A stretch of DNA of 64,000 nt from Promethearchaeota archaeon. GTDB lineage: Archaea; Asgardarchaeota; Lokiarchaeia; Sigyniarchaeales; SOKP01. The stretch covers positions 45,907 to 109,906 of the forward strand of contig JBHLLU010000007.1 in NCBI GenBank assembly GCA_048938895.1, given 5' to 3'. Shown here one piece after another: positions 13,752 through 34,209 of the stretch. The notes beneath the pieces are model-generated. The model had not been told where the DNA came from. It saw only the letters and a list, made by a program, of their open reading frames with translations, and did no database searches. Position 1 is the first letter of the stretch, and each line of letters starts with the position of its first letter. A program made the position numbers and the translations under genes.

Positions 13752-14055
13752 ATTCTACTATGTTTTCTAATTCTTGAAATCAAAAAAGTTTTTCTAGGAT
13801 ATTATAAAACCCAATACTTATATTGAAAATTAAAAAATAATATACAAAATCTGGGTATACGATTTATGAATTATTAAAGGAATATTAGAAAAATTCAGCA
13901 CTCAAAGATTTAAAATAATTTGTATCTATAATTATCCTATCCAATTATAAGACAAGAATTGGTAAAGGTAATATTATATCTAATGATGATCTATTGAGTG
14001 AGATAATCCCCTACGTTGGTTTATTCAAGATCATGCAACTATCTATTTCGGCCAT

Positions 14056-14358
14056 TTGAATATAGTTAAAGAGCGTGAGGATTCAAAATCATTAATACGA
14101 AGGCTCTTCACTAAACCACGGGAACTTGATAATAAAAAGATTGAGCCTTTATTTAAGATACTGGATGAAATTGCAAAAGCACATAATAAAACTCTTGCAC
14201 AAGTGGCAATTAATTGGCTTATAACAACAGAACAGATATGTGTTATACCAATTCCAGGAATTAGAAATATACGACAAATAAATGATAATATGGGTGCACT
14301 CGGTTGGCACATTACGAAAGAAGAACGTGCTCATATCAACAAAACCGAGATTAGTTGA
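14056..14358 (+). pseudogene. C-terminal fragment of an aldo/keto reductase
   Basis: IAKAHNKTLAQVAINWL...PIPGIRNIRQINDNMGALGW matches the AKR C-terminus. The N-terminal ~200 aa are missing and there is no room for them upstream. Confidence 0.7.
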
Positions 14359-14399
14359 AATTATAAGTTCAGAAGAATGCAATTAATGAACTTAGGTTC

Positions 14400-15143
14400 T
14401 TATTTATATTCAGATTCATCTACAACCAAATTGGGATCAAGTAATCCTTTTTGAATTTTCCTTAATACATAATTCCTAAATTCCTTGCTTGTGAAATTTC
14501 GAGTTTCAAATTGATTAAATTCCTCTACTTTTTCTCCTGATTTATTATTAATTGTTTCAACATCCCGCATGACATATTCAACCATCGTTGCGCCTAATAA
14601 TATACTAAATAAAAAGGATGAAATTAAAGCAGCATCTTTTTCTTTGATCTCTCCTTTATCAATTGCTTTTTGAATTACGCGAGTAGTTCCTTCCAGATAT
14701 CTAAAGGGCTTATATTCTTTTTCAAATGGTCCTTTTTTTTCTGAGGGAGGAGATCGGATAATGTGCATCATTCGAAAAGCCGCATAATCTTTTTCTGCAA
14801 ATTCAAAAAAGTGTTTAAAAATTTTTAGTAATAAATCAACAGTTGAACCGTTAAAATTCTTAATGATCTCCCGGTTTTCATTCCTGTATTGTTCATAAAA
14901 CTTTTTCCTTATCGCAATCCATAGTTCTCGTTTGCTTTCTACATAATTATAGAGATTATTTTGGCTCATACCTAATTTTCTTGCGAGACCACGTAGTGTG
15001 AAACCATGAAGTCCTTGTTCTTGAAATAATTGTTTTCCTACTTCAAGAATTTCATCAAATTGTTGAGCTTTCTTCTCAGGAGACCTACTTCTTGTTTGTT
15101 TTTTACTATTAATATCGCTTTTTCCATCAATCATTGATTTCAC
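14400..15143 (-). CDS. TetR/AcrR family transcriptional regulator
   Basis: ILEVGKQLFQEQGLHGFTLRGLARKLGMSQNNLYNYVESKREL helix-turn-helix. Confidence 0.92.
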   Translation of the reverse strand: MKSMIDGKSDINSKKQTRSRSPEKKAQQFDEILEVGKQLFQEQGLHGFTLRGLARKLGMSQNNLYNYVESKRELWIAIRKKFYEQYRNENREIIKNFNGSTVDLLLKIFKHFFEFAEKDYAAFRMMHIIRSPPSEKKGPFEKEYKPFRYLEGTTRVIQKAIDKGEIKEKDAALISSFLFSILLGATMVEYVMRDVETINNKSGEKVEEFNQFETRNFTSKEFRNYVLRKIQKGLLDPNLVVDESEYK

Positions 15144-15161
15144 AGAATTTTAAAATGAGTC

Positions 15162-15182
15162 TAAATTCACATAATTAATTTA
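15162..15182. promoter_or_regulatory. Candidate TetR operator (autoregulatory copy) TAAATTCACATAATTAATTTA
   Basis: 19/21 identical to the reverse complement of the palindrome at 18816-18836. Lies in the divergent tetR/activase intergenic region. Confidence 0.6.
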
Positions 15183-15253
15183 AAATGATTTATTGTTCAA
15201 GTACTTTATGAATTTATTTTCAATTTTTCTAAAAAATATGATGGTGTCTACTT

Positions 15254-16198
15254 ATAGCATCAAAATCTAAAGGTTTAATCTTCAAAATTGAGAGAATGGC
15301 TACTGACGATGGCCCTGGTATTCGTACGACAATTTTTTTTAATTATTGTCCCTTAAATTGCATTTGGTGTCATAATCCAGAATCCATTCCAAAGAAACCT
15401 CAACTTCAATGGATAGATCGTAAATGTATTGGTTGTAATAGTTGTGTAGATGCTTGCCAAGAGAATATCCTATTTTTTGAAGAAGATGGTTTACATATTA
15501 ATAGAGAGAAATGTACTAGTTGTGGAGATTGTGCAGAAGCCTGTCCAAGTACGGCATTAACTATGTGGGGTAAGTGGTGGGATCTAGATATTCTTTTTCG
15601 CGATATTGAGAAAGAAAAAATATTTTTTGATAAAACAAGAGGAGGTATTACCGTTTCTGGTGGTGAACCTACATTTCAAGCAGATTTTCTCTTACAGTTA
15701 TTAAAATTATGTAAGGAAAATGACATTACTACTGCTTTAGATACTTGTGGATATTCAAGTAAAAAAGTTTATCAAGATTTATTACCCTACGTTGATATTG
15801 TCCTTTTAGATATAAAAGTCATTGATCCTAAAAAACATGAAGAATATACGGGTGTTCCAAATAAAATAATTTTAGATAATGCTAAATGGATTTCACGTTA
15901 TATCAAAGAAAATGGAAAAGTTATGTGGATAAGAACACCAATAATTCCTCACTATACTGCAACTAAAGAGAATGTTAAAGGAATTGGAGAATTCATTGTA
16001 AATGAATTAAATAATATTCCTGATCAATGGGATCTATTAAGTTTTAATAAACTATGCGAAATTAAATATTCAAGGTTAGGTCAACCATGGCCTTTAAAGG
16101 ATGAGCCCTTAATGACAAAAGAAGAGATGGAAAATTTTCTTGAAATTGCTAAAAATACAGGTGTCAAAAACGTTAAGTGGTCTGGTTTAACTCGTTGA
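15254..16198 (+). CDS. Glycyl-radical enzyme activating enzyme (radical SAM with 2x[4Fe-4S] ferredoxin insert)
   Basis: DGPGIRTT, CPLNCIWCHNPE, two CxxCxxCxxxC motifs, GGITVSGGEP, DTCG. The conserved N-terminus KGLIFKIER lies upstream of the track ATG (15296); the likely start is ATA at 15254. Confidence 0.92.
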   Translation: MASKSKGLIFKIERMATDDGPGIRTTIFFNYCPLNCIWCHNPESIPKKPQLQWIDRKCIGCNSCVDACQENILFFEEDGLHINREKCTSCGDCAEACPSTALTMWGKWWDLDILFRDIEKEKIFFDKTRGGITVSGGEPTFQADFLLQLLKLCKENDITTALDTCGYSSKKVYQDLLPYVDIVLLDIKVIDPKKHEEYTGVPNKIILDNAKWISRYIKENGKVMWIRTPIIPHYTATKENVKGIGEFIVNELNNIPDQWDLLSFNKLCEIKYSRLGQPWPLKDEPLMTKEEMENFLEIAKNTGVKNVKWSGLTR

Positions 16199-16350
16199 AT
16201 CGAAAAAAAACGAATTGCAAATCCTCTATTTCTTATATTTTATATTAAAATATCATTCTCATTTCACATCTTAAACAAGAATATGATCTTGAGTTTTTTA
16301 ATTTAAGATTGAAAAATAAAATAGAAAAAATTAAAAAAGTAAAATAAAAT

Positions 16351-18789
16351 TTATATTTCATTGAATACTGTTCTTGCGATAATATCATCCTGAAGTTCTT
16401 TTCTTAGATCTATGAATCGAGCAGAATAACCTGAGACTTTAACGGAAAGATCAGGATATTTCTCTGGATGAGCTTGAGCGTCTCTTAATGTTTCTGAACT
16501 TATTGGATTTATCTGAAGCTCTCGACCTCCCATCTCTAAATAAGCCTCCACTATAGAAGTTAAATGTTCGAGTCCCTCATCTGTTTCTAGTATATTCGGA
16601 TTGATTCTAATATTCATAGTTGCTCCATTCGTTAAATGAGGGTCAGCTGTAGCATAGGCTACTGATCGAAGTGTCATAGTAAGCCCATTCTTTTCCATAC
16701 CGTTTGCAGGAGAAATACCATTTGATACAGGTTCATAGGCTAATCTTCCATCTGCAGTCGCCCCCAATGCTTTACCTTCCATAACTTGTGTTCCGGAAGA
16801 TACAAGACAATTATGATATATACCATCACCGCCTCTTGCTTTATATTTTCTTGTAATATCACATATAGTAGATGCAACCCATTTTGCTAACTCGTCTACC
16901 TTTTCATCACCATTACCGTATTTGGGAGCTTTATTTCGTAATTTTTCTCGAAGTTCTTCCGCCCCCTTGAAATTATTATTCATATGGTTAACTAATTCTT
17001 CCATGCTCACTAATTTCTCTTCAAAAACTGCCCATCGAATTGCTGCTAAGGAGTCTGCGACACCACCAAGTCCTTGAGACCCCATTGGGTTGTTGTTATA
17101 TTTAGCTCCGTTTCTAGTTGCATCCATTCCGCTTTCGAGACATCCTTCTATCGTAGATGATAGCAATGGGGAAGGTAGGTAATCTGCAAATGCTTTATCC
17201 TTTAACTCAGCCTTTTGTACCGTGAGATCTATAGCAAATTTAAGCTGTTCTACATAAGCTTTCTTGACATCTTCAAAAGATTTAAAAGTTTTAGCTGGGG
17301 GTGTTTTCACTCCAACAGTTTTATTTCCTGAAAAAATAGTGCGTCCTTCATTTAATGCCATGTTAAGAAGGATTGAAATCTGAATAGCATTCCCTGCAGT
17401 ATAAGAGAAATCATTACCAGTACCATGGGGTTCCACGCATCCCACAAGTGAATAATCTCTAGCATCCTCTAATGAATATCCAGTATTATGAAGTTGTGGG
17501 ACTAGAACTTCATCATTATGAATGCCCATTCCAGCTGTATATTTAAAAGCTTCAATTGTCCTTTTCAGAAAATTATGGGGTGTCTTGGAAGAAATTCGTA
17601 TTGATATTGTATTTAATAAGCTTTTTACATTTGCAACAGCCTCAAGAAACATGTATGATACATCATTAGTAGCGTCATTTCCATCCTTGTCTAGTCCACC
17701 GATAGTTACATTATTCTGTCCTGCGATAACGACAGAAGCAAGTTTAACTAAATACTCCTCAACGAGTTCTAAAGCTTCTTCATAAGTAATACGGCCTTCG
17801 GCTAAATCAGCGGCATAATATGGGTAAAGATATTGGTCAACGCGTCCTTGAGAAAATATATTTCCTTCACCATAACTCATTTCCATGACGACATTAGTCA
17901 TCCATATTGATTGAAGTGCTTCTATAAATGTTCTTGGTGGAAGGGCAGGTACTCGTCTTGTGCGTTCAGCAATTTCTAAGAGTTCAGCCTTTCTTGTTTC
18001 TGAAGCATTTTCTGCCATTTCCACTGCAAGATCAGCATAACGATTGGAATAATCGCAGGCAGTTCTTGCTGCAACTACGACTGATTCATAAAAATCCTTG
18101 CGTTGGTCATATTTTTCATCAGTCTCCCTGAGTTTCGTAAGCCCTTCTTCTGCCATTTTTTCAATTCCTCTAAATCCCATTTTAAGAACTCGTCTATATC
18201 CAGGAATAACATGTCCTTGACCACTAGCACCTGCAAATATATCAGTGCCGCCCCGAGATCTACCCATAGGACTTAGTTCAGACTCTGCTGTAGTTAAACC
18301 TGCTTTTTCCCAATATTCTCTTTTCCGAGCTGCTACTGTTCTTCCTTTCCAGAAGGGGACGATTTCATTTTTCAACTCATCCATTTCTTCCTTTGGTAAG
18401 GGAAGATATCGATTAAGGAAAGTAAATTTTTTGGCAAACCCATCTCTTATTCTTTTATCTATTGCATCATTAAAGATAAACCCAAAAATACTAGCACGCA
18501 TTCCACGTTCTATTTCAATTGGATCGGCTCTTACCTTACTAGATTTTACACCCACAAGAAGCTCATCGTTCTCAATCCTAATCGGTAAGCGATGTAAGAA
18601 TTCCTCTAATGCTTTAGCATTCTTCATACAGGGCGGAGCATCTTCCATTTGTTTATATATTATTGTATAACACCGAGCTCGTTCAATATCAAGTTCTCTA
18701 GGCATAGAAAGCATTCTATCTCTAATCTTTCGAACCCTCTCGGAAGGAATCCCTTGAAGAGGGGTCATTTTAATACCTTGAACAACCAT
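16351..18789 (-). CDS. Glycyl-radical enzyme, eliminase-type PFL superfamily, substrate unknown (paralog 1)
   Basis: Cys loop LVGCVEP, Gly loop LSVKVSGYSARF, GRVDQYLYPYY, APKYGN, GATADGR. Confidence 0.92.
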   Translation of the reverse strand: MVVQGIKMTPLQGIPSERVRKIRDRMLSMPRELDIERARCYTIIYKQMEDAPPCMKNAKALEEFLHRLPIRIENDELLVGVKSSKVRADPIEIERGMRASIFGFIFNDAIDKRIRDGFAKKFTFLNRYLPLPKEEMDELKNEIVPFWKGRTVAARKREYWEKAGLTTAESELSPMGRSRGGTDIFAGASGQGHVIPGYRRVLKMGFRGIEKMAEEGLTKLRETDEKYDQRKDFYESVVVAARTACDYSNRYADLAVEMAENASETRKAELLEIAERTRRVPALPPRTFIEALQSIWMTNVVMEMSYGEGNIFSQGRVDQYLYPYYAADLAEGRITYEEALELVEEYLVKLASVVIAGQNNVTIGGLDKDGNDATNDVSYMFLEAVANVKSLLNTISIRISSKTPHNFLKRTIEAFKYTAGMGIHNDEVLVPQLHNTGYSLEDARDYSLVGCVEPHGTGNDFSYTAGNAIQISILLNMALNEGRTIFSGNKTVGVKTPPAKTFKSFEDVKKAYVEQLKFAIDLTVQKAELKDKAFADYLPSPLLSSTIEGCLESGMDATRNGAKYNNNPMGSQGLGGVADSLAAIRWAVFEEKLVSMEELVNHMNNNFKGAEELREKLRNKAPKYGNGDEKVDELAKWVASTICDITRKYKARGGDGIYHNCLVSSGTQVMEGKALGATADGRLAYEPVSNGISPANGMEKNGLTMTLRSVAYATADPHLTNGATMNIRINPNILETDEGLEHLTSIVEAYLEMGGRELQINPISSETLRDAQAHPEKYPDLSVKVSGYSARFIDLRKELQDDIIARTVFNEI

Positions 18790-18815
18790 AATTCTTATAT
18801 TGTTTTTTTATTATT

Positions 18816-18844
18816 TAAATTAACTATGTTAATTTATTTATAAA
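18816..18844 (-). promoter_or_regulatory. TATA box (TTTATAAA, 18837-18844) with immediately downstream palindromic operator TAAATTAAC-TAT-GTTAATTTA (18816-18836)
   Basis: Perfect 9-bp inverted repeat between the TATA box and the GRE1 ATG (18789). Confidence 0.7.
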
Positions 18845-18987: not shown

Positions 18988-21417
18988 TTATAATTCATTA
19001 AATACTGTACGGGAAATGATGTCATTTTGAAGACTTCTACCCACTTCTATAAAACGAGCAGAATAACCTGTAACCTTAACTGATAAGTCAGGGTATTTTT
19101 CTGGATGAGCTTGAGCGTCTCTTAATGTTTCTGAACTTACTGGATTAATTTGAAGTTCTCTTCCTCCTATTTCTAAATAAGCTTCAACAATAGAAGTTAA
19201 CTTATCTACACCCTCTTCTGTTTCTATTAAACTGGGATTGATCCTTATGTTCATTGATGCTCCACCGGTTAGGAGGGCATCTTTTGTCGCGTAAGCTACT
19301 GATCGGAGCGTCATAGTAAGCCCATTTTTCTCTGTTCCGTTTGCAGGAGATATGCCGTTAGAAACAGCTTCACCAGATAATCTTCCATCGGGAGTAGCTC
19401 CTAACATTTTACCCTCAAGTATATTAAGTCCTGAAGATACAAAATATGTGCGATAAATACCAGCACCACCTCTGGCAGGATATTTTCTCACAATATCACA
19501 TAAAGTATTCGCAACCCATATTGCTAGTTCATCTGTCCGTTCATCACCATTACCGTATTTGGGAGCCTTATTTCTTAAAAGTTCTTTAAGTTTCTCTGCT
19601 CCCTTGAAATTATTATTCAGATGCGTAACTAATTCTTCCATTGTTAACAACTTTTCTTCGAATACAGCCCAACGAATTGCTGCTAATGAATTGGTTACGG
19701 TTGCTAATGCTTGACAGCCAATAGGGTTGTTATTATAGAGCGCTCCATTTCGAGTTACATCTTTTCCACTCTCTAGACATCCCTCTATTGTAGATGAAAG
19801 CAAGGGGGAAGGAAAATAATCTGCATATACTTTATCCTTTAGTTCAGCCTTTTTCACCACTAAATCTACTCCAAAGGAAAGCTGGTCTACAAAAGCTTGT
19901 TTCACATCTTCGAAAGTTTTAAATGTACTTGGATGAGGGGTTTTTGCTCCAAATTGGCGGTTCCCTGCTATAATCATTTGTCCTTCGTTTAAAGCCATAT
20001 GTAAAACGGTTGACAATCGAACACCATTACCTGCAGTGTATGAAAAATCAAAACCTGTACCATGAGGTTCTACACAACCTACAAGTGAGTAATCTCGGGC
20101 ATGTTCTAGTGAATAGCCATCTTCTTGAAGCTGTGGTACTAAGATTTCATCATTATGAATGCCCATTCCACCTGTGTATTTAAAAGCTTCAATAGTTCTT
20201 TTCACAAAATCCCGAGGTGTCTTGGAAGAAATCCGTATTGATATTGTATTCAATAAACTTTTTACATTTGCAACAGCTTCAAGAAACATATAAGATATAT
20301 CATTTGTGGTATCATTTCCATCCTTATCTAATCCTCCAATAGTTATATTATTCTGTCCTGCGATAACAACAGAAGCAAGTTTAACTAAATATTCCTCAAT
20401 GGCTTCCAAAGCTTCCTCATAAGTAATCCGTCCTTCTGCTAAATCAGCTGCATAATAAGGATAAAGATATTGATCTACTCGTCCTTGAGAAAATATATTA
20501 CCATTACCATAGCTCATTTCCATGACGACGTTGGTCATCCATACCGATTGAAGTGCTTCCATGAAACTTCTGGGTGGGAGGGAAGGCACTCTTCTTGTCC
20601 GTTCAGCGATATCTAAAAGTTCTGCTCTTCTATGTTCTGGTGCATTTTCAGCCATCTCTATTGCCAGATTTGCGTAACGATTAGAATAATCACAAACAGC
20701 TTTGGAACAAACTTGAACTGCTTCATAAAAAGTCTTGCGATTTTCGTAATCCTCATCATCTTCTTTAAGTTTTTCAAGTTCTTCGATAGCTCGTTTTTCT
20801 ATTCCTTTAAATCCTATTTTAAGAACTCGTTTATACCCTGGAATGGTATGACCCTGCATATTTGCATAAAATGGGTTAATCCAACTCTCAGCTCGTTCCA
20901 TAGAACTCTTTTTCTCCTTGAATAAGCCTGCTTCGATCCAAAGTTTTTCTTTCAGGTCCGTTAATGTCTTCCCTTTCCAAACTGGGATAATATCATTTTT
21001 CAATTCGTCAAGTTCTTCTTCTGTAAAAGGGACATAACGTCTAAGGATGGGATTACGCCTGCGGAAATAATCTTTAGTTTTTTCGTCTATTGAATCATCT
21101 AAAAGAAAATCATATGTTCGAACATGCCTTCCAAGTTCTATTTCAAAAGGATCAGCTCGTATTTTACTGGATTTTACTCCTACAAGAATTTCATCAGTGT
21201 CAATCCTAATAGGGAGGCAGCGCAAAAATTCTTCTAATGCTTTAGCCTTTTTCATGTAGGGATGAGCATCTTCCATCTGTTTCCAAATCCTTGAATAGCA
21301 TCGTGCTCGCTCAAGATCATATTCGAAGGGTTGGGATAACATTTTGTCCCTAATTTTACGAACCCTTTCTGTAGGAATACCTTGAAGTGGAGTCAATCTG
21401 ATATCTTGAACTACCAT
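18988..21417 (-). CDS. Glycyl-radical enzyme, eliminase-type PFL superfamily, substrate unknown (paralog 2)
   Basis: LVGCVEP, LSVKVTGYSARF. Colinear with and highly similar to 16351-18789. Confidence 0.92.
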   Translation of the reverse strand: MVVQDIRLTPLQGIPTERVRKIRDKMLSQPFEYDLERARCYSRIWKQMEDAHPYMKKAKALEEFLRCLPIRIDTDEILVGVKSSKIRADPFEIELGRHVRTYDFLLDDSIDEKTKDYFRRRNPILRRYVPFTEEELDELKNDIIPVWKGKTLTDLKEKLWIEAGLFKEKKSSMERAESWINPFYANMQGHTIPGYKRVLKIGFKGIEKRAIEELEKLKEDDEDYENRKTFYEAVQVCSKAVCDYSNRYANLAIEMAENAPEHRRAELLDIAERTRRVPSLPPRSFMEALQSVWMTNVVMEMSYGNGNIFSQGRVDQYLYPYYAADLAEGRITYEEALEAIEEYLVKLASVVIAGQNNITIGGLDKDGNDTTNDISYMFLEAVANVKSLLNTISIRISSKTPRDFVKRTIEAFKYTGGMGIHNDEILVPQLQEDGYSLEHARDYSLVGCVEPHGTGFDFSYTAGNGVRLSTVLHMALNEGQMIIAGNRQFGAKTPHPSTFKTFEDVKQAFVDQLSFGVDLVVKKAELKDKVYADYFPSPLLSSTIEGCLESGKDVTRNGALYNNNPIGCQALATVTNSLAAIRWAVFEEKLLTMEELVTHLNNNFKGAEKLKELLRNKAPKYGNGDERTDELAIWVANTLCDIVRKYPARGGAGIYRTYFVSSGLNILEGKMLGATPDGRLSGEAVSNGISPANGTEKNGLTMTLRSVAYATKDALLTGGASMNIRINPSLIETEEGVDKLTSIVEAYLEIGGRELQINPVSSETLRDAQAHPEKYPDLSVKVTGYSARFIEVGRSLQNDIISRTVFNEL

Positions 21418-21444: not shown

Positions 21445-21473
21445 TAAATTAACTATGTAAATTTATTTATAAA
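21445..21473 (-). promoter_or_regulatory. TATA box (21466-21473) plus operator TAAATTAAC-TAT-GTAAATTTA (21445-21465)
   Basis: One mismatch from the 18816 palindrome, same position relative to the TATA box. Confidence 0.7.
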
Positions 21474-25301: not shown

Positions 25302-26297
25302 TTATAAACTTAATCGTGGATCCAATGCATCTCGCAGTCCATCTCCTACAAGCATAAATCCTATAGATGTTACTCCTATTAATAGTCCAGGCCAAACAGC
25401 CGCATTGACATTGCTAAATGTAGCTCTTGCCCAATTAATATCAGTTCCCCAACTGGCAACAGTTGGATCTCCAAATCCTATAAAAGCTAAACCTGCTAGA
25501 CCTATTACAGCGACCGCTGCTCCGCCAAAAAATGCTATTATCATAGGGCTAATAGCATTAGGTATAATATGCTTAAACATCACTTTGAACTTTTGCGCAC
25601 CACCTGTTTTTGCTGCTTGAATATATTCTAATTGCTTTACTTGTAACACAAGGGATCGCATAAACCTGGTCCTATATGGTATAAAAAGAATTCCATAAAT
25701 TACAAGACTAGTAAATAATGCTTGTCCCAGTATAGGAACGAGTATGACAACCAGAACCAAATTTGGAAATGCATACATTACATCTACAAAACGCATCATT
25801 AGATAATCTACCGTGCCACCAAAATATGCTGATATCGTTCCTAAGATAAGTCCTCCTCCAATTGAGATGGATACAGGAATTAATGCCATTAAAAATGTGG
25901 TTCTACCACCCCAAATAATTCTTGCTAAAACATCATATCCATATTTTGTTGTCCCTAAAGGATGTTCGGGTGATGGAGAAGCAAATGCAGTTTCTCCAGC
26001 AGGAATATAAGGTATCACTATCTCTTCTATTCTATAGTGAGTTAACCAAGGAGTATATATTGCTAATACCATAATGAATAGGATCATTACCATTCCTGAT
26101 ATTGTTAAAGGTCTCAGAAGGCGTCGAAACATTCTCCTTTTAGATTTTATTTTTTCTATCTGATATTCTTGAGCTGAGAATTCAGGATCTCGCCAACCAG
26201 GAGTTAAATAAAATCTTAAGAATCGAAAAAATTGCTTTTTCCTATCTAATTCAGGCTGTATTTGAATCTTATCCTCAATAAAAGTTTGTTCTGTCAT
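25302..26297 (-). CDS. oppC: Opp/Dpp ABC permease C
   Basis: HPLGTTKYGYDVLARIIWG, EAA-like YIQAAKTGGA, HIIPN, GDGLRDALDPR. Confidence 0.92.
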   Translation of the reverse strand: MTEQTFIEDKIQIQPELDRKKQFFRFLRFYLTPGWRDPEFSAQEYQIEKIKSKRRMFRRLLRPLTISGMVMILFIMVLAIYTPWLTHYRIEEIVIPYIPAGETAFASPSPEHPLGTTKYGYDVLARIIWGGRTTFLMALIPVSISIGGGLILGTISAYFGGTVDYLMMRFVDVMYAFPNLVLVVILVPILGQALFTSLVIYGILFIPYRTRFMRSLVLQVKQLEYIQAAKTGGAQKFKVMFKHIIPNAISPMIIAFFGGAAVAVIGLAGLAFIGFGDPTVASWGTDINWARATFSNVNAAVWPGLLIGVTSIGFMLVGDGLRDALDPRLSL

Positions 26298-26321: not shown

Positions 26322-27398
26322 TTAAGTATATGTTATTCTAGGATCAATAATAGTATACATGACGTCCGCAACTAAATTCCCTGTAAGAAGTATTATGGTA
26401 GAAAATACTAAGAGTCCGTTTATAACTAAATAATCTCCTAAAAATATCGACTCAACCATATAAAAGCCAAAACCTTTATATTCAAAAGTTACTTCAATAA
26501 AAAAAGATCCTAGTAATGCCGTTGCGGTCCCCCCGATAATAAGATTGCTAGTGGGTAATAAAGCATTTCGAAGGGCATGTTTATTTATAACATCTTTTTC
26601 TATAACACCTTTAGCTCTCGCAGTTCTAATGTAATCTTGATCTAAAACATCTAACATACTTGATCGGGTTTGCCTAGTAATAGCGGCCAACGAAACAAAA
26701 GTTACGCATAGAGCCGGAAGAAGTAAATGTTGTAATGTGTCCCATAGATAAATTTGATCATTATAGAGGAAACTATCAATTAAACGAAATCCTGTTTTAT
26801 CCCAAGGCCAAACAAGGTCTGGCTCTGGATATCTCAATCCTGGAGTATTAGCGAAAAATACAGGTAAGTCTAATTTAGTATACGTAAACGTTCCCAAATA
26901 ATAACCAAATAAGAGCTGAAGCAAAGTAGCAATCCAAAACACGGGAAACCCAGCTCCAAAAATTGCAAGAGCTCTGATGAGAATATCTTTTGATTTATCC
27001 TTATGGGTTGCTGATGATAGTCCAAGCTTAACTGCAATGATAGGACTTAATACTATCGGAATTATCATTAATTCTATTGTTCTTGGAAATACTTCTAAAA
27101 TAAAATCGATAACAGGAACATTTTCTCGAATTACATAAGAATTACCCCAATCTCCTGTAAAAAAATTTTTATAATACAAACCCAATTGAACATACCAAGG
27201 ATCATAGAAACCAGCTCTCTCTAATTCGGCTTTAAGCACGTCAAAATCAACTAAGCCACCTAATTTGTTGGTAATTGGGCTTACTTCCATCAAATGCGAT
27301 AAAATCCAGGCAAAAGTTAGAACAAGAAACAACATTGGGATCATCATTAATATCCGTCTGATGATATATTTTATCATATTTGTCTTTTTTTTAACCAC
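26322..27398 (-). CDS. oppB: Opp/Dpp ABC permease B
   Basis: YIIRRIL, DYIRTARAKG, HALRNAL, DVMYTIIDPRI. Confidence 0.92.
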   Translation of the reverse strand: MVKKKTNMIKYIIRRILMMIPMLFLVLTFAWILSHLMEVSPITNKLGGLVDFDVLKAELERAGFYDPWYVQLGLYYKNFFTGDWGNSYVIRENVPVIDFILEVFPRTIELMIIPIVLSPIIAVKLGLSSATHKDKSKDILIRALAIFGAGFPVFWIATLLQLLFGYYLGTFTYTKLDLPVFFANTPGLRYPEPDLVWPWDKTGFRLIDSFLYNDQIYLWDTLQHLLLPALCVTFVSLAAITRQTRSSMLDVLDQDYIRTARAKGVIEKDVINKHALRNALLPTSNLIIGGTATALLGSFFIEVTFEYKGFGFYMVESIFLGDYLVINGLLVFSTIILLTGNLVADVMYTIIDPRITYT

Positions 27399-27554: not shown

Positions 27555-27581
27555 TATAAATAAATTTACTTCGTAAATTTA
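27555..27581 (+). promoter_or_regulatory. TATA element (TATAAA) plus perfect palindrome TAAATTTAC-TTC-GTAAATTTA (27561-27581) upstream of the substrate-binding protein
   Basis: Same consensus and same TATA-adjacent position as the GRE promoters. Confidence 0.7.
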
Positions 27582-27629
27582 ATTTAACAAAAAAATCGAA
27601 ATCAAAAAAAAGTAAGGCGAATCAATAAT

Positions 27630-29840
27630 ATGAAAAAATATTCAAAAGGATTAATATTAACTCTTTTTCTTACTTCTATGCTAATACCGTTCTTTCCTAT
27701 TGCAAAAGCTCAAGTCACAGATGTTTTTATTGGAAGCTCCGCCGGACCACGTTCTCTTGCTCACTGGGATAGTCCTACTGCTGTGGTTAGTACTGGCGAT
27801 TATTATGTGGGTGCCACTCTTGAAACATTGTTTCGACCACGAGAACAGCTTTGGGATGGTGGTAATGATGGCGCTGAATTACTTCCAGTACTTGCAACAA
27901 GCTGGGTACTTACAAATAGACCAGATGAAATGAATGAGGATGGTTTTATGAATTATGACGGTGTAGAATCAGTAGAAATAACCCTTCGATCGGGAGTTAA
28001 GTTCCATGACGGTTCAGATTGGAATGCAACAGTATGCAAATGGAATATCGATAGACTTATGACAATTATTGGGAATATTAGTGGTATTACACCAGTAGTT
28101 GATTCAAATATGGGTTCTAGACGAGATACTTTTTGGTTAGAACAAGCTGATTGGGCACCCTATGAAAGCCCCAGTTGGAATGTCACGCAGTATGCGGGGA
28201 AGCCTGGAGAGTATCCAGGATTTGGTACCTCTACTGAATCAAAAATGATGGGTCGCTGGCCCCGATTTTATAATGTAACCATTACACAAGATTTACAATC
28301 GGGGGGGACACTTATAATCCATTTTGGTGACTGGGCCTCTGGTATGAATTATTTATGGGGAATCATCATGATCTCAATGTATTCCTATGGAGCAGACTAT
28401 TCTGATACTGCTATCTTAGGATATGGTCTGACTCCTCCTTTTCTACAACCAGATATTTCTGGTGGCTATCCTACTACAGGATTCCCCGGACACCTCATAG
28501 GTACAGGTCCTTATGTTTTTGAAGAACATGTATCGGATATTGGTACATTACATAGATGGGATGATTGGTGGAATGCTACTGCTCAACAAGCTGAGGGTTG
28601 GCATACAGTTGAGAACGTTGCGTTAGCTACTTTTGCCCACACAGAAGCAGGATATCAGGCTAGAAATACTGCTATGGTTACAGGAGATATTGACTGTGCT
28701 TATGACCGTACTTGGGAACCTGTCAATTATAAAGATATGAAAAAAGCTCCTAATGTAAGATATGTACCTCTTGGCGTTGAAAGTTATGGAGAAAATATAA
28801 TTCTCAATTGTATCAATGAAACGTTTATGTGGACTTGGGCTAATGTCTATCACTTAAATATGAGTTCCTACTATCCTACTCTCAAGGGTGCATTCGTTGC
28901 TTCAGGAGTAATGAATCCAGACGGGACTATGAATGCACATGGAATAAATCGTGCTTTTAGAAAGGCGCTTTCTTATGCGTTTGATTATGATACTTGGATA
29001 CACGTTGCAATGGAAGACCGTGTAGTACGTTCTGGAGGATATCTTTGCACAACAAATCCATATTATAATCCATCCATACCAATTGCTACTCATAACCTCA
29101 CCATAGCACGCCAAGCTCTTTTAGATGATCCATACTGGGGAGCAAAATGTGCTGCTAGAGGTCTTGATGAAAGTAGTTCAGATAGTGATTGGCGGACAGT
29201 AGCAGAGACCAATCCTATTTATAGCATGGAGTATAGTTGGGATGATGCCCATTTAGAATCTTATAGTGTGATGTCGACAAGTCTTACGGATATTGGGTGT
29301 GATCTGGCTGATACCGAAGCTTGGAAAGATGTACCTGATACATACACTAAAATGTCTGCATACTTCACATTTCCTTGGACCATAACTGATGGATTTGCAT
29401 TAAAATTAGGTTATACCCGAGTAGCCAATCTTGGTTACCTTGAAGCCTATTATAAGAGTCCTGCATCTTCAATCTTTCCATATGATCAGTTTTACAATAT
29501 GGGCTTTTGCTATAATACAACATACGATAATGCAATCAAGAAAGTCTGGTTCCAAAATGAAACTGGAGTTCAAGAATCATATGATTTCCTATCTGATTGG
29601 ATTCAGAACTATCAATATCCAACTATTTATTTAGGGAATGATTTGAGGGGGATGGCAATCGCTAAAGACTGGGATTTTAGCTTTTTCTGGGGTGTGTTCA
29701 GGTTTAATTTTATTAAGCCTAGAGAACCGGGTGCGGCACCATTGATCCCAGGTTATTCACTTTGTGTTATTTTACCTGTTGGAATAATGGCTATCTCAGG
29801 AATCGGTTACACAATTATAAGAAAAAAGAAACATGCATAG
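27630..29840 (+). CDS. oppA: ABC substrate-binding protein, family 5 (OppA/DppA-like), with signal peptide and C-terminal PGY-TM-basic sorting signal
   Basis: P.LATSW, LRSGVKFHDGS.WNA, IGTGPY, FRKALSYAFD. C-terminus IPGYSLCVILPVGIMAISGIGYTIIRKKKHA. Confidence 0.88.
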   Translation: MKKYSKGLILTLFLTSMLIPFFPIAKAQVTDVFIGSSAGPRSLAHWDSPTAVVSTGDYYVGATLETLFRPREQLWDGGNDGAELLPVLATSWVLTNRPDEMNEDGFMNYDGVESVEITLRSGVKFHDGSDWNATVCKWNIDRLMTIIGNISGITPVVDSNMGSRRDTFWLEQADWAPYESPSWNVTQYAGKPGEYPGFGTSTESKMMGRWPRFYNVTITQDLQSGGTLIIHFGDWASGMNYLWGIIMISMYSYGADYSDTAILGYGLTPPFLQPDISGGYPTTGFPGHLIGTGPYVFEEHVSDIGTLHRWDDWWNATAQQAEGWHTVENVALATFAHTEAGYQARNTAMVTGDIDCAYDRTWEPVNYKDMKKAPNVRYVPLGVESYGENIILNCINETFMWTWANVYHLNMSSYYPTLKGAFVASGVMNPDGTMNAHGINRAFRKALSYAFDYDTWIHVAMEDRVVRSGGYLCTTNPYYNPSIPIATHNLTIARQALLDDPYWGAKCAARGLDESSSDSDWRTVAETNPIYSMEYSWDDAHLESYSVMSTSLTDIGCDLADTEAWKDVPDTYTKMSAYFTFPWTITDGFALKLGYTRVANLGYLEAYYKSPASSIFPYDQFYNMGFCYNTTYDNAIKKVWFQNETGVQESYDFLSDWIQNYQYPTIYLGNDLRGMAIAKDWDFSFFWGVFRFNFIKPREPGAAPLIPGYSLCVILPVGIMAISGIGYTIIRKKKHA

Positions 29841-29864
29841 ATTTAAGAATTAATAACAATTTCA

Positions 29865-29877
29865 TTTTTTTTTTTTT
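29865..29877 (+). terminator. Oligo-T terminator after substrate-binding protein
   Basis: T13 run starting 25 nt after the stop. Confidence 0.55.
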
Positions 29878-30013
29878 CCTTCTATTAGCTTAAAAAGACT
29901 AAGTTTTAATAAATTCTAGAAACCTTAAAAGGACTAACAGATTTTAAAATCCGTAAAATCAAGTTTCATTACAAAATGAAAAATTTATAATATATATAGC
30001 CCTCAATTATTTT

Positions 30014-31117
30014 ATGACTCAAATTGATAATTATGAGATTGTAAGACAAAAATTACAAATTGGAACAATAACTGCTCCTAACCACAAAAAAATATTCAAA
30101 TTGATGAAGATTTTCTGGAATGAAGATGAGATCAAAGTTTTATCTCAATTTAATAATGTGGGGATGAAAACCTCTCGAAAAGAATTAGCGGAAAAAACAG
30201 GTAAATCAGAAGAAGAAATAGAAGAACTGTTAAGAAGATCAGCAAGAAATGGCACCGTTTTGAGATCTGGCTCAGATTATCGATTGCTTCCGCTTGTACC
30301 AGGTATATTTGAAATGTACTTTATCAGACGAAAGGATTCTGAAGAAAATCTTCACAAAGTTGCAGAGATTTATCGATACATTTTCAAAAACAGAGCACCA
30401 GATTTAGAAGATGATAAAAGCATCCGAAGAGGATTCCGTCCTTTACTTCCATATGATTCTGAGGAGAAGTTAATTAAAGTTGATGAATCGTTAGATGTTG
30501 AGACTAAGGTTCTTCCTTTTGAAGTAGTTAAAGATATGATCGATAAAAATGAATCATTTGCCGTTGTACCTTGTCAGTGTCGGTTAATTGGTGAATATAC
30601 AGGAGAACCATGCAAACATGCATCTGCAGAATTGGGTTGTTTTCTAACTGGAGAAGCTGCGGAAAGGCAGATAGGTTATGGCGCAAAAAGACTGACTAAG
30701 GAAGAAGCTATTGAGTTTATTAGAGAAACTGAGAAAGCAGGACTTGTTCATAATACTGTTGCAGATACCAGTAAAGACACGTCTCAATGGATTTGTAATT
30801 GTTGTAGTTGTCATTGTGGAGTATTACTTCCCGCCAAATTATATCATTATAAGGGTGTTTTTCAGACTAATTTTACTCCTGAATTTGATATGGAACTCTG
30901 TACTAAATGTGAAATATGTATGGAAAAATGTCCTAACGAAGCGATTTATCATGTCTGGCCAAGTAAACCAGATTCATCAGATGAGAAGATGAAAGTTAGA
31001 GAAGAAATGTGTATAGGATGCGGAACTTGTGCTGCAAATTGTCCAAATAATGCAATTAAAATGGTTAAAGTAAGAGACGAGCACCCTAAAAGACTGAGCA
31101 TAAATATTTTTGGTTAA
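30014..31117 (+). CDS. Fe-S protein: N-terminal HTH-like region, Cys-rich central domain, C-terminal 2x[4Fe-4S] ferredoxin
   Basis: PCQCR...C...C, ICNCCSCHC, CTKCEICMEKCP, CIGCGTCAANCP. Confidence 0.85.
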   Translation: MTQIDNYEIVRQKLQIGTITAPNHKKIFKLMKIFWNEDEIKVLSQFNNVGMKTSRKELAEKTGKSEEEIEELLRRSARNGTVLRSGSDYRLLPLVPGIFEMYFIRRKDSEENLHKVAEIYRYIFKNRAPDLEDDKSIRRGFRPLLPYDSEEKLIKVDESLDVETKVLPFEVVKDMIDKNESFAVVPCQCRLIGEYTGEPCKHASAELGCFLTGEAAERQIGYGAKRLTKEEAIEFIRETEKAGLVHNTVADTSKDTSQWICNCCSCHCGVLLPAKLYHYKGVFQTNFTPEFDMELCTKCEICMEKCPNEAIYHVWPSKPDSSDEKMKVREEMCIGCGTCAANCPNNAIKMVKVRDEHPKRLSINIFG

Positions 31118-31227
31118 ATTGATATTTCTAAGTTTAAATTCTTTTTTTTGTAAAAAAGTAATAAATTATTGATTCTCCTTGATTTTCTCGTCACTTTCTC
31201 CTTCCGAAAATATACAAAAGCGAAAGA

Positions 31228-31989
31228 TTAACGACCTTTAAATATTGGCTTTCGATTTTCACTAAGCGCCTTGATACCTTCCTGCAGGTCTTCACTATCT
31301 AATTGAGGTTGAATAAACGCATTAAATTCCTCCTGGGCTAAACGTGCTGCTTTTCTTGCTGCAGGTTCCATATTCTTGTAAAGTCCATATTTAATCGCTT
31401 TTAGTGTTAATGGCGCATTGTCACGTAGTATTTCAGCCATCTTGGTAGCTTCTATCATAAGCTCTTCCTTATTTTTTGTTACATGGTTGACTAAACCCAC
31501 TTCATAAGCTCGTTTACCACTCATTGGTTGACCGCCCATATAAAATTCCATAGCAACCTTAAAAGGCATGTAAGGGGTATATTCTATAATTCCACCTACA
31601 ATTCCGACCCACGCTTCACCAAAGATGAACTGAGTATCTTCAGTGGCATAGGTAATATCGGTACCACGAATCGCAAGTCCATATCCACTTCCCGCAACAG
31701 TTCCATGCACAGCCCCAACAATTGGTTTCAGGATTTTGGTTCCATTCGAGGGAAATGCTTTACGAAGATCGTTTAATAAGCCCCTGACTCTGAGATCTGC
31801 ACCAAAACTAAAGTCTGGACCATTTGCACTGAGAATTCCAACTCTGCTTTCAGGATCATCAGCGAAGCGATCCCATGCTTTTCCCAAGGCTTTACATAAA
31901 GGAGGATCTAATAAATTTCGCTTTGGATTGTTTAATGTAATATATGCAATCTGATCTTTAACCTCATATATTAATACTTCACTTGACAT
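31228..31989 (-). CDS. Crotonase (enoyl-CoA hydratase/isomerase) family protein
   Basis: ITLNNPKRN, FSFGADL, KPIVGAVHG.VAGSG, SEDLQEGIKAL.ENRKP.F. Confidence 0.9.
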   Translation of the reverse strand: MSSEVLIYEVKDQIAYITLNNPKRNLLDPPLCKALGKAWDRFADDPESRVGILSANGPDFSFGADLRVRGLLNDLRKAFPSNGTKILKPIVGAVHGTVAGSGYGLAIRGTDITYATEDTQFIFGEAWVGIVGGIIEYTPYMPFKVAMEFYMGGQPMSGKRAYEVGLVNHVTKNKEELMIEATKMAEILRDNAPLTLKAIKYGLYKNMEPAARKAARLAQEEFNAFIQPQLDSEDLQEGIKALSENRKPIFKGR

Positions 31990-32120
31990 TTTTTTTACCT
32001 TTTTTATGTTTGATTAGATTTTTCAATAGTTATATATGGATTATTTTTATATATAATTTTTTTAACTTTGAAATAACCATGCTTTGAGCAATAAATTTAA
32101 AAACTTAGGAAATAATTCAT

Positions 32121-33440
32121 TTATTTTCGAGAGAAACCATATTTTTCAAGCGTTTTAGTTACAGCCATAACATTTTCATGTTTCGAACGTTCAGGAAGAC
32201 CTACTCCACCATCAAGAATATACCCTCCACCTTCCTTGCAGCCTTCAAGGATTTTTTTCACGTAATCTTCCATTTGAATTGGAGTTCCTGCAATAAATAA
32301 TGTTGCAGGAATATTTCCCAGAATTATTGCATAATCACCCATTCTTTCTTTTACTTTAATTATATCTGTTTTATCAAACCTATAACATACTTTTCCCTTA
32401 TGCGATTTAGCAAATTCTTCAAGATAATCAAGTCGATCATTATATGATCCTTCTATGAAAGGTGATGCAATATAACCTTGTTTAATAAAATTATCCATGA
32501 CTTTTGCTAGTGATGGCCAATAAAATTCTGCAAATTGCTCATCACTCATAAATCCATCAGCTCCTCTATGTAAAGGCATAAAAACCATAGGATCGATCTC
32601 TTGATGTACACTTCTGGAACTTAATGTCATTACTTCACTCAATGGTACAATAAACATTTCTATTAATGCTTTTAATTCCTCAGGTCGTTGATACATATCT
32701 AACATTACACCCCTCAGACCTCTAAGTTGATCACCGACCATATCAAAGGGAGCAAATGAAAATGCATTCCTTGTATTCAATGAAGGAAAGCCTAGTTTTT
32801 TCATCTCACTTAAATAATTCATACTAGCATTCCTTGATTTCCTCATTAGTTGTCGTACTTCACCAATTTTTTCCACTAGCTTCAAAACATCTGGATTCAT
32901 GATCCACATTGGTATTCCCATTAAACCATTTAATAATTGGAGCCTTGTAAAATTTGGAAACAAGGTAAATGGCTTAAAAAGACCACACAGATTGGGCAAG
33001 ACTTTTCGAATTACATACTGAGTAGGATCTGCAAGAATCTCTTTATAATCTTCAGCTTTCATGTATTCACCTTCAATATATTGAACTGTCGAGTTATCTG
33101 GTAATCGAACCTCTGGATTTTCAGCCCCTGCCCATTTTAAAGTCTTTACTTCCAGTAGATCCATGATAGGGCCTGATTGTAAGCCTAAGATGCCACTAGA
33201 GGCTAAATCCCATTCATATTGTGGTAAAATTTTTAAAGCCGCTTCATACATTTTTTCAGGATTATAATTTGCCTCTTTAACTGTCATCCCATTTTGAATA
33301 GCAGCATAAAGTGTGCCCATTGGAGCATATGGAACCCGATCTGGTTCTCTCATTTTCATTGCATCAATATATCTTTGCTTTCTTATTTCACAAAGTCGTT
33401 CAATTTCTTCTTCATTCATAGTAATTACACCATTGACCAC
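32121..33440 (-). CDS. UroD/MtaA-fold corrinoid-dependent methyltransferase-like protein
   Basis: EPDRVP, YMKAEDY, PFD...D.LRG, PLHRGADGFMSDEQFAEFYWP, GNIP, GGGYIL. Overlaps the corrinoid-protein gene. Confidence 0.8.
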   Translation of the reverse strand: MVNGVITMNEEEIERLCEIRKQRYIDAMKMREPDRVPYAPMGTLYAAIQNGMTVKEANYNPEKMYEAALKILPQYEWDLASSGILGLQSGPIMDLLEVKTLKWAGAENPEVRLPDNSTVQYIEGEYMKAEDYKEILADPTQYVIRKVLPNLCGLFKPFTLFPNFTRLQLLNGLMGIPMWIMNPDVLKLVEKIGEVRQLMRKSRNASMNYLSEMKKLGFPSLNTRNAFSFAPFDMVGDQLRGLRGVMLDMYQRPEELKALIEMFIVPLSEVMTLSSRSVHQEIDPMVFMPLHRGADGFMSDEQFAEFYWPSLAKVMDNFIKQGYIASPFIEGSYNDRLDYLEEFAKSHKGKVCYRFDKTDIIKVKERMGDYAIILGNIPATLFIAGTPIQMEDYVKKILEGCKEGGGYILDGGVGLPERSKHENVMAVTKTLEKYGFSRK

Positions 33441-34063
33441 TTTGTAGCTAAATTTACTGCTTCCACAGCACTCTCTCCATAGGCATCCGCACCCACATAT
33501 TCAACAATTCTTTCATCGACAGTTCCACCTCCAATCATAATTTTTATCGTATCACGTAATCCCGCTTCTTCTACTTTTTGAATGATTTCTTTCATCGAGT
33601 CAAATGCAAGAGTTAGGAATCCACTAAGTGCTAAAACTTTAGGTTTAAACTGTTTTAAGTTTTCGATAAACATGCTCGCAGGAACATCTATGCCTAAATC
33701 TAATACATCAAACCCATTTGCTTCTAGCATGAATTTCACTACATCTTTACCAATATCATGAATATCCCCCGCAACAGTTCCTAAAAGTACTTTTCCTTTC
33801 TTTTCTTCAGAACTTTGAACTTCTTTTAATTTAGGACCTAACTCCTCAAAGATTTGTCGCAAAATTTCTCCCGACATGATCAAATCCGGTAAGAAGTATT
33901 CTTTATTTTGGAATCTATCTCCAATAAGTTTCATAGCAGTCTTTACATCATTCATAATTAATAATAGATCATCTTTATTGGCAAGTCTTTCTTTTAATAA
34001 CTCTAAAACTTTACTTTCATTCAAATCCACTATTTCATCAATAAAATTAGACACACGAATCAC
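33425..34063 (-). CDS. Corrinoid (B12-binding) methyl-carrier protein
   Basis: Cap domain IGDRFQNKEYFLPDL; GTVAGDIHDIGK (DxHxxG), DLGIDVP, SGFLT, MIGGG. Confidence 0.93.
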   Translation of the reverse strand: MIRVSNFIDEIVDLNESKVLELLKERLANKDDLLLIMNDVKTAMKLIGDRFQNKEYFLPDLIMSGEILRQIFEELGPKLKEVQSSEEKKGKVLLGTVAGDIHDIGKDVVKFMLEANGFDVLDLGIDVPASMFIENLKQFKPKVLALSGFLTLAFDSMKEIIQKVEEAGLRDTIKIMIGGGTVDERIVEYVGADAYGESAVEAVNLATKWSMV

Positions 34064-34209
34064 TTTAATTTAGTAAATCAATTTAGGATTAGAAATTATT
34101 TAAATTTGGTTTTGCAATTAGACATATTTTTTCTAGTTTAAAACTAAACCGAAATTTTATTCTTTAGCTTATTTATCAGTAGGAAAATAATTTATCCTTT
34201 TTGGAATTT

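Follow-up and report, generated by a model that had tools for sequence, protein, structure and literature searches.

A block of accessory genes inserted between uvrB and uvrA in an Asgard archaeon carries a putative TetR-controlled regulon for import and glycyl radical elimination

All characterised C-O, C-N and C-S eliminases among the glycyl radical enzymes (GREs), together with the new isomerases, keep a Cys-X-Glu motif, and in glycerol dehydratase (GD) His164 protonates the leaving hydroxyl, as set out in a 2026 review whose eliminase and isomerase sections (5.6 and 5.7) list no characterised archaeal GRE eliminase (PMC13450708). Asgard genes that resemble pyruvate formate-lyase (PFL) are currently read, in the relevant passages of three reports, either as formate-making PFL or as hydrocarbon-activating Ass/Bss (PMC8163825, 10.1101/2025.03.11.642519, PMC11291895). 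Among corrinoid methyltransferases, CdmB is described as the chloromethane methyltransferase I of Acetobacterium and is grouped with the O-demethylases MtvB, OdmB, VdmB and MtoB in the UroD superfamily, with close CdmB homologues reported in one Asgard order (PMC13222342). Here we describe a block of about 20 kb (13752-34209) in a 64,000-nucleotide stretch of a Promethearchaeota genome, hereafter the window (contig JBHLLU010000007.1, positions 45,907 to 109,906), in which the co-oriented DNA-repair genes uvrB and uvrA enclose two GRE genes together with an activase, a regulator and an importer. We consider, with a probability of about 0.65, that the block is a mosaic of accessory genes whose core is one TetR-controlled regulon for catabolic import and elimination. 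Beyond the Ass/Bss and PFL readings, we found no earlier description of this clade or locus in the literature, and the supplementary tables of PMC13222342 and PMC8163825 may list these genes.

The two enzymes, GRE-A (16351-18789, minus strand) and GRE-B (18988-21417, minus strand), are paralogues with 73% identity, and each has a PFL-like barrel and a glycine-radical domain (PF02901, 539 and 518 bits; PF01228, 87 and 84 bits; paired scores are given throughout for GRE-A and then GRE-B). Both carry the Cys-X-Glu that marks the 1,2-eliminase/isomerase class. GRE-A has C451-V-E453 within a GCVEP loop, H193, and G787 within SGYSA; GRE-B has C448 and E450 (GCVEP), H190 and G784 (SGYSA), and shares the QGH motif of GRE-A. 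When GRE-A is aligned with HMMER to the GD structure 1r8w, H193 falls on GD His164, a position at which CutC has Asp. Ala465 takes the place of GD Asp447, and an Ile that of GD Ser282. We take CutC Asp216 (the Asp of GGGD), GD Ser282 and GD Asp447 to have roles in their respective enzymes. The gene at 15296-16198 (plus strand) encodes a radical S-adenosylmethionine (SAM) protein that scores 297.5 bits against the GRE activase family TIGR02494 (cut-off 174.35) and has the C18-x3-C22-x2-C25 motif and a ferredoxin-like insert, in keeping with a cognate activase.

The window belongs to a metagenome-assembled genome (MAG) of 4.65 Mb (G000), and it was compared with 60 relatives, or 61 genomes including its own, which are numbered G002, G024 and so on. 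Neighbouring genes were counted in a set of 55 related loci comprising 790,046 bp, many of which are short contigs and all of which are kin rather than independent; matches covering <30% of the query were dropped from these censuses, and one census also used per-gene identity thresholds. The genome sets for the GRE-clade survey and the related-locus survey overlap, and because all of the compared genomes are related MAGs, the counts below overstate independence. With this in mind, proteins at least 69% identical to GRE-A occur in 14 of the 60 relatives (15 genomes with G000 itself), and the next matches reach no more than 43%. The gap is also seen in a set of 5.8 billion proteins, where the named matches at 63% identity or more are all labelled Asgard and the next tier stands at 47-52%. 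For a tree we used open reading frames (ORFs) of at least 650 aa in which GCVEP or GYSA was present and which aligned with GRE-A over >700 aa at 55% identity or more; identical sequences were merged and outgroup proteins were of >780 aa, so that 86 rows were kept. In the FastTree result, whose support values were not inspected, the Asgard group is one clade against 28 next-tier proteins, and GRE-A and GRE-B fall into separate subclades that differ at 15 positions fixed within each, H659R and Q668N among them. Other genomes have up to four tandem GRE copies, and the activase adjoins a GRE in 36 of the 55 loci. On these comparisons the two enzymes belong to a discrete, uncharacterised clade whose named members carry Asgard labels. 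The related loci carry differing submitter phylum labels (Promethearchaeota, Hod-, Hermod-, Odin-, Thor- and Helarchaeota), and it would be unsafe to judge from such labels how widely the clade is distributed among taxa.

Members of the clade are named 'pyruvate formate lyase family protein' or 'formate C-acetyltransferase' in their source annotations, and these names would favour PFL, as would the two Asgard papers in which PFL is listed for formate production (10.1101/2025.03.11.642519, PMC11291895); the assignment of Asgard GREs to Ass/Bss, made in the part of PMC8163825 that treats them on 29-33% identity, would favour alkyl- or benzylsuccinate synthases. By profile score and by motif, however, both assignments fail for this clade. 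With the PFL equivalog TIGR01255 the scores are 138 and 131 bits, where 994 would be needed, and the active-site loop has a single Cys (GCVEP) where PFL has two adjacent Cys (as described in PMC8163825). Among solved structures, CutC and GD match best (402-465 bits); the BSS and MAS structures (4pkc, 9o8u) reach 212-231 bits and PFL 110-116 bits, and no succinate-synthase alpha match is outstanding. The activase reaches 173.9 bits against the BssD-type family TIGR04003, for which the cut-off is 496. No small-subunit candidate was noticed, none having been specifically searched for, and the block has a polar-solute importer instead. We therefore regard it as scarcely credible that these are PFLs or succinate synthases.

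A better case can be made that the GREs are divergent forms of a known eliminase, such as glycerol, 1,2-propanediol or hydroxyproline dehydratase, and that the block is an archaeal copy of a known pathway. The Cys-X-Glu motif and the His at the GD His164 position are what such an enzyme would have, HypD is the highest-scoring equivalog, GD is among the best structural matches, an M24 peptidase occurs in one related locus, and the dehydrogenase and oxidoreductase partners described below resemble the aldehyde disproportionation of diol pathways. The scores, however, are less than half of every NCBIfam equivalog cut-off: 488.7 and 481.6 bits for HypD (NF043068; cut-off 1100), 477.2 and 451.1 for CutC (TIGR04394; cut-off 1050), and, for the sulfopropanediol dehydratases with a cut-off of 1000, 482 and 468 for NF048011 'HpsG' and 474 and 461 for NF048009 'HpfG'. 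Moreover, these scores are nearly equal to one another, and all of the solved eliminases and isomerases match at 285-465 bits with none outstanding, so that no single enzyme is favoured. The replacement of GD Asp447 by Ala465 and of GD Ser282 by Ile, and an Opp-type importer with a 736-aa binding protein, which would be unexpected for small diols, also speak against a known function. We consider that isofunction with a known eliminase is unlikely. On the scores against all of the equivalogs the GREs stand outside the characterised clades; a place within one of these would have refuted the pathway suggested in an earlier sequence-only reading of this stretch.

The genes of the core are tied together by a shared operator. 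A repeat search found similar stretches of 46-59 nt upstream of GRE-A, GRE-B and the binding-protein gene, and a shorter one in the spacer between the regulator and the activase, and the core of these stretches is a 19-bp palindrome. In its strict form, AAATTAAC-N3-GTTAATTT, the palindrome has eight matches in the window at up to three mismatches, where 3.3 were expected and none of 100 shuffles reached eight. The consensus drawn from the related loci, AAATTWAC-N3-GTWAATTT, has three exact copies in the 4.65-Mb genome, all of them in promoters of the island. These are AAATTAACTATGTTAATTT at 18817-18835, a perfect palindrome (0 mismatches) that lies between a TATA box and the start of GRE-A, with its centre 37 bp before the ATG; AAATTAACTATGTAAATTT at 21446-21464, upstream of GRE-B in the same promoter module as that of GRE-A; and AAATTTACTTCGTAAATTT at 27562-27580, in the divergent region between oppB and the binding-protein gene, with its centre about 59 bp before the ATG of the latter. 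A variant, AAATTCACATAATTAATTT, lies at 15163-15181 in the divergent promoter of the activase and the adjacent gene (14400-15143, minus strand), which encodes a TetR-family regulator with an N-terminal helix-turn-helix (HTH) domain (PF00440, residues 32-77, 41 bits).

The site is kept across genomes. The 55 related loci contain 37 copies at no more than one mismatch, and 36 of these stand upstream of a GRE, a binding-protein or a TetR gene, the 37th being at a contig end. The distance from operator centre to start is 37-40 bp for GREs, 59-84 bp for binding proteins and 29-42 bp for TetR, where the variant found at 15163 is the form that recurs; the TetR-side sites stand 126-140 bp from the activase. 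In 18 of the 55 loci the activase has a TetR orthologue as its neighbour, with 67-87% identity. A TATA-like box, TTTATAAAT or CTATAAAT, stands immediately 5' of the palindrome, and TTTATAAAT abuts the GRE-A operator; a bound dimer would therefore occupy the site of the archaeal pre-initiation complex. We infer from the fixed promoter positions of the palindrome, an in silico observation, that TetR acts through it as a repressor. The shared operator was put forward in the sequence-only reading as support for an import-plus-GRE core, and the conservation of the site now argues that this core is indeed one regulon. The accompanying remark that the corrinoid and crotonase genes have no operator also holds, as the operator search gave no site ahead of either of these or of the Fe-S and URO-D-fold genes. 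Elsewhere in the genome, the sole other site within one mismatch of the strict operator (G000:C165:11009-11027) is flanked by adenylate kinase on one side and by another family 5 binding protein (556 aa) on the other; it may belong to the regulon or be a chance match.

The importer has the five-component Opp/Dpp layout, with its family 5 binding protein, a pair of BPD_transp_1 permeases and a pair of ATP-binding cassette (ABC) ATPases in which ABC_tran is followed by oligo_HPY. The ATPases are OppF-type (21578-23326, minus strand, ABC_tran at 276-425) and OppD-type (23347-25230, minus strand, ABC_tran at 300-471), and the permeases are OppC-type (25302-26297, minus strand) and OppB-type (26322-27398, minus strand). 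The ATPases are 582 and 627 aa long respectively, where soluble ATPases of this kind would have about 270-350 aa, and each has about seven transmembrane (TM) segments at its N-terminus. In OppF seven to eight hydrophobic segments lie in residues 6-227 of an N-terminal domain of about 240 aa, and in OppD likewise about seven precede the ABC domain within about 260 aa. The two N-domains show no similarity to each other and have no relatives in the atlas that was searched; for that of OppD there was no usable atlas match, and all structure rows had a TM-score <0.5. The OppD N-domain has 86 homologues. Apart from two partial records, each of them also contains the OppD-type ATPase families, and every named one is Asgard. 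An alignment of 33 homologues shows invariant W122, W195, S196, Q198 and E203 and the run Q217-D218-I219-R220. We regard the 7-TM extensions on both ABC ATPases as an unexplained transporter architecture. The same genome holds two more Opp systems with long frames (G000:C125 and G000:C142; 1068 and 593 aa, 639 and 441 aa) and one conventional pair (348 and 268 aa).

The binding protein (27630-29840, plus strand; 736 aa) is very divergent, with 80.9 bits against SBP_bac_5, and is presumably membrane-anchored, with hydrophobic segments at its N- and C-terminus. It is the fastest-evolving part of the core, at 39-63% identity between genomes against 51-93% for the other parts, and searches returned one weak PDB sequence match and sub-threshold NCBIfam matches and nothing more. 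In 10 of the 55 related loci an ORF of 178-179 aa that has no Pfam family lies between the binding protein and oppB (for example L045:3838-4377 and L086:2498-3034); in the window the spacer is 231 bp and is free of this ORF.

The block is an insertion between uvrB and uvrA, which were ancestrally adjacent. The upstream flank, uvrB (34210-36225, minus strand), has UvrB_inter, UvrB, Helicase_C and UVR domains and orthologues in the genus; the downstream flank, uvrA (10881-13751, minus strand), has UvrA_inter, UvrA_DNA-bind and ABC_tran domains and genus orthologues at 79-90% identity. The outer neighbours of the two genes are aIF5B and a 1307-aa AglB/STT3. For the same-locus survey, UvrB and UvrA were searched in the 60 relatives, of which 36 are of the same genus and 24 of other families, and gap sizes were measured between match ends. 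Both genes lie on one contig in 25 of the 36 same-genus genomes, and in 16 of these 25 the gap is 56-65 bp; the remaining gaps are 195-301 bp (n=3), 0.7-1.7 kb (n=3), 3.7 and 5.6 kb (n=2) and 20.2 kb (n=1, G002). In the other families a shared contig was found for 20 of the 24 genomes; uvrB comes before uvrA in every one of them, with gaps of 30-430 bp (n=12) or 1.2-3.8 kb (n=8). Ancestral adjacency follows from these gaps and this order, and the statement in the sequence-only reading that the two genes are commonly neighbours is thus upheld within the genus and, as collinearity, beyond it. Every gene that it named was likewise recovered by profile matches at 13752-34209 between the co-oriented uvr genes.

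The same island, in the same order and with about 20.2 kb, is present in G002, where it has no corrinoid pair, and the contig-limited views of G004, G025 and G027 fit the same layout. In G024 and G036 the gap between uvrB and uvrA holds a lone GRE-B orthologue that is 90-91% identical to GRE-B of the window, and the rest of the module sits elsewhere in the genome. These lone copies nest within the GRE-B subclade and retain a degenerate version of the operator module. The core is also found elsewhere in genomes that keep uvrB and uvrA adjacent, and the binding protein, OppBCDF, GRE or GREs, activase and TetR recur together at different genome sites. The cargo at the junction and at the island edges varies by genome and includes a PKD-domain protein, a weak SAM-methyltransferase match, a thiolase-like protein and a TPR/CN-hydrolase protein. 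Taken together, the absence of the corrinoid pair from G002, the presence of a close UroD orthologue in 3 of 61 genomes and the occurrence of the core elsewhere mean that the junction is a variable spot that has collected accessory genes, and that the island is a mosaic.

A mobile element, in the sense of a classical mobile island, was considered and rejected: no integrase or transposase Pfam family was present among the scanned ORFs, no long direct repeats were found flanking the block, and no tRNA was found in 8000-41000. The GC content is 0.31-0.38 inside the block and 0.31-0.35 outside it, with no sharp break. Next to uvrA stands a remnant gene of 100 codons (14056-14358, plus strand) that encodes a C-terminal fragment of an aldo-keto reductase (AKR; PF00248 positions 218-288 of 291, E 1.2e-10); it is present in single copy in the genome and was not found in the related loci. 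Two further observations concern the uvr genes. The uvrB match beside the island in G002 (C3:215295-217136) contains three TGA and three TAA stops and may be a pseudogene or reflect an assembly problem. At G000:C99:55805-62881 there are UvrA-like paralogues, one in a frame of 846 aa and one in an open frame of about 1644 aa with two UvrA-like matches, at 41-44% identity, an arrangement that recurs in most members of the genus.

The context of the core in other genomes bears on the product. In 6 of the 55 related loci the activase operon also encodes a tungsten-type aldehyde:ferredoxin oxidoreductase (AOR), and in five of these an iron-type alcohol dehydrogenase (Fe-ADH) is present as well, in two gene orders, ADH-AOR-activase and activase-ADH-AOR, divergent from TetR. 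Such neighbours are the usual signature of an aldehyde-forming eliminase, with ferredoxin here as the electron acceptor. Because Fe-ADH and AOR lie in the activase operon of other genomes, the product of the GREs is probably an aldehyde, which backs the earlier suggestion of an elimination that gives one. In the genome of the window, ADH (61% identity) and AOR (71%) genes stand next to each other on a different contig. The window itself has a further AOR paralogue at 49371-51257 (plus strand), about 13 kb beyond uvrB and outside the island, with 39% identity to the AOR that accompanies the cluster in other genomes. Near a diverged GRE copy (68% identity, locus L084) there are a zinc-type ADH, a type-B carboxylesterase and an alpha/beta hydrolase (5565-7379, 14665-16749), and in the island of locus L043 a PKD protein matches tannase/feruloyl-esterase very weakly; these esterase-type neighbours are a faint hint that esters feed the pathway. 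The zinc-type ADH and the AKR remnant of the window also count in favour of an aldehyde.

The remaining genes of the block lie between the binding protein and uvrB. They are a gene for an Fe-S protein with a Cys-rich middle and a 2x[4Fe-4S] C-terminus (30014-31117, plus strand; Fer4 families at 290-350), one for a crotonase-fold protein (31228-31989, minus strand; ECH_1, 103.5 bits), one for a 429-aa UroD-superfamily corrinoid methyltransferase I (MTI) of the CdmB/O-demethylase type (32121-33440, minus strand; PF01208, 87 bits) and one for a corrinoid protein (33425-34063, minus strand) with B12-binding (PF02310) and B12-binding_2 (PF02607) domains and 172.6 bits against TIGR02370, under its cut-off of 215. 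According to the sequence-only reading, import, elimination and possibly salvage of a methyl group could form one pathway across the whole of the block. On such a view the imported compound would give up a methyl group (O-, N- or halo-linked) to the corrinoid pair, either ahead of cleavage by the GREs or following it, and the crotonase and Fe-S protein would process the rest. The pair is genuine, an MTI lying next to a corrinoid protein as in the systems described in PMC13222342. The best PDB match of the UroD-fold protein is a distant one, CdmB 9rui (E 2e-27, 99 bits). Its orthologues at 87% identity occur inside the island alone, beside uvrB, in G000, G025 and G027, the next best matches in the 61 genomes being at 34-48%; and the pair is found at two positions relative to the crotonase, so that it has been kept through rearrangement. 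Pterin-binding proteins (PF00809) and RACo-type activators (PF14574) on other contigs could complete the chain, and crotonase orthologues are limited to genomes with the GRE clade (10 of 10).

Several observations oppose a single pathway. The G002 island has no corrinoid pair, and 12 of the 15 GRE-clade genomes have no UroD orthologue. No operator precedes these genes, and profile scans found no methyltransferase II (MTII) or activator among the island ORFs. A Fe-S orthologue (89% identity) is present in G018, which has no GRE of the clade, and in G024, G025 and G036 the crotonase lies in an unrelated neighbourhood (PNPOx-like, MarR, carbonic anhydrase, Band 7 and TPR proteins). We therefore judge it improbable that the whole 20-kb block is one pathway. 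What survives of the earlier proposal is the import-plus-GRE core and not the single unit. As close UroD orthologues exist in just 3 of 61 genomes, the corrinoid pair appears to be a recent, lineage-specific addition.

The crotonase seems to be closer to the core. Its orthologues (at least 72% identity) occur in 10 of the 61 genomes, and all 10 are among the 15 GRE-clade genomes; inside the cluster it takes three different positions. This suggests that the crotonase is functionally tied to the GRE clade, the genomes being kin, and it is likely to be a downstream helper. Its link to the core had been put down to proximity only, and with a phyletic co-occurrence of 10 out of 10 it is stronger than that. 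For the Fe-S protein, orthologues (at least 74% identity) are present in nine genomes; its PDB matches run through the ferredoxin part only, its nearest atlas clusters are unnamed 4Fe-4S proteins, and its neighbourhoods in G024 and G018 give no hint of a pathway, which is also true of the crotonase neighbourhoods in G024, G036 and G025. Co-transcription of the Fe-S gene with the binding-protein gene was considered and rejected, as we infer from a T-run and a separate TATA-like box between them. The Fe-S protein and the corrinoid pair are best seen as putative later additions that may or may not belong to the GRE pathway.

We suggest the following scheme for the core. Without inducer, TetR would block transcription by sitting on the 19-bp palindromes, which come just after the TATA box in the promoters of GRE-A, GRE-B and the binding protein, and on the one in the divergent promoter of TetR and the activase. 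With inducer, the Opp-type importer, made up of the anchored binding protein, OppB and OppC, and the 7-TM OppD and OppF, would take up a polar hydroxylated substrate, and the radical-SAM activase would place a glycyl radical on GRE-A and GRE-B. Using Cys-X-Glu and the His at the GD His164 position, the GREs would then carry out a 1,2-elimination on the hydroxylated substrate, most likely a dehydration, or the loss of another leaving group next to a hydroxyl. The resulting aldehyde would be oxidised by the tungsten-type AOR, reduced by Fe-ADH, or both, with enzymes whose genes are in the operon elsewhere and on another contig here. GRE-A and GRE-B would probably act on related substrates or isomers.

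A number of points weigh against this scheme. The island of the window has neither ADH nor AOR, just the AKR fragment, and the linkage to AOR and ADH is seen in no more than 6 and 5 of 55 loci, many of them short contigs and all kin. The binding protein has no informative relative from which a substrate could be named. The GREs reach 546.6 and 504.7 bits against the PFL2/glycerol dehydratase subfamily TIGR01774, which is short of its cut-off of 678.2, and the nearest non-Asgard GREs (47-52% identity), examined at three of 24 metagenome loci (L104, L108 and L109), have no common catabolic neighbours. The operator stands 150-181 bp from oppB starts, so that control of oppBCDF would be less direct, and when two mismatches are allowed the genome as a whole shows no enrichment of the strict motif (37 sites, and 43 for the control). 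Finally, the window genome is a MAG with an estimated contamination of 7.5%.

If the regulon is nonetheless as we propose, a regulated import-and-elimination pathway that feeds ferredoxin via AOR would change metabolic models of sediment Asgard archaea. A bolder version, which we offer tentatively and at odds well below even, is that the GREs are founding members of an Asgard-confined eliminase family with a new substrate class, a larger polar molecule imported by the Opp system, which might be a diol from the detritus of plants or algae in esterified, etherified or methylated form. Tandem copies would then resolve isomers or variants, uptake would use an ABC architecture that is new in having, on both ATPases, Asgard-specific 7-TM domains whose polar residues are conserved, and the recruited methyltransferase would unmask or pre-process a methylated form. 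The system is tractable, since the 19-bp operator and TetR should report the inducer, the binding protein can be screened, and there are two paralogues with 15 fixed differences.

Among described systems, the GD (1r8w) and propanediol dehydratase loci resemble the core in the PFL-like fold, the glycyl motif, Cys-X-Glu, the His at the His164 position, an activase with a ferredoxin-like insert and dehydrogenases for an aldehyde. The island differs from them in that its GREs fall below the PFL2/GD cut-off and have Ile and Ala at GD Ser282 and Asp447, and in its archaeal host. Aldehyde oxidation would here go through the ferredoxin-dependent AOR and not through a CoA-acylating dehydrogenase, no microcompartment genes were seen, and the island has an Opp-type importer and tandem GRE paralogues, of which there can be up to four copies. 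CutC (9f3w, 5fau) is the best PDB match (465 and 452 bits) and shares the Cys-X-Glu chemistry that gives an aldehyde, but the GREs miss TIGR04394 and have His where CutC has the Asp of GGGD. The hydroxyproline enzymes HypD, HpyG, HpzG and HplG offer a parallel in that close GRE paralogues each take one stereoisomer, as the review describes for them (PMC13450708), which may explain the GRE-A/GRE-B pair. In contrast, HypD scores 489 and 482 against 1100, and the structures 6vxc, 8id1 and 8iof match no better than CutC or GD.

For the accessory methyltransferase, the comparison is with the Cdm and O-demethylase systems (CdmB, MtvB, OdmB, VdmB, MtoB). The island protein aligns with CdmB over its full length (429 against 439 aa), with the score mostly in the C-terminal half, and the gene for the corrinoid protein is adjacent and overlapping, an arrangement comparable to that described in PMC13222342; unlike those systems, the match is distant (99 bits) and MTII and the activator are not in the locus but on other contigs. 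The regulator resembles TetR repressors in its N-terminal HTH and in a 19-bp inverted repeat that lies in the divergent promoter of its own gene as well as in the promoters of its targets, and differs from them in its archaeal setting, with the operator immediately downstream of a TATA-like box. Lastly, the importer has the five components of Opp/Dpp importers and departs from them in that both of its ATPases carry unrelated orphan 7-TM N-domains, the one on OppD being found only on such ATPases.

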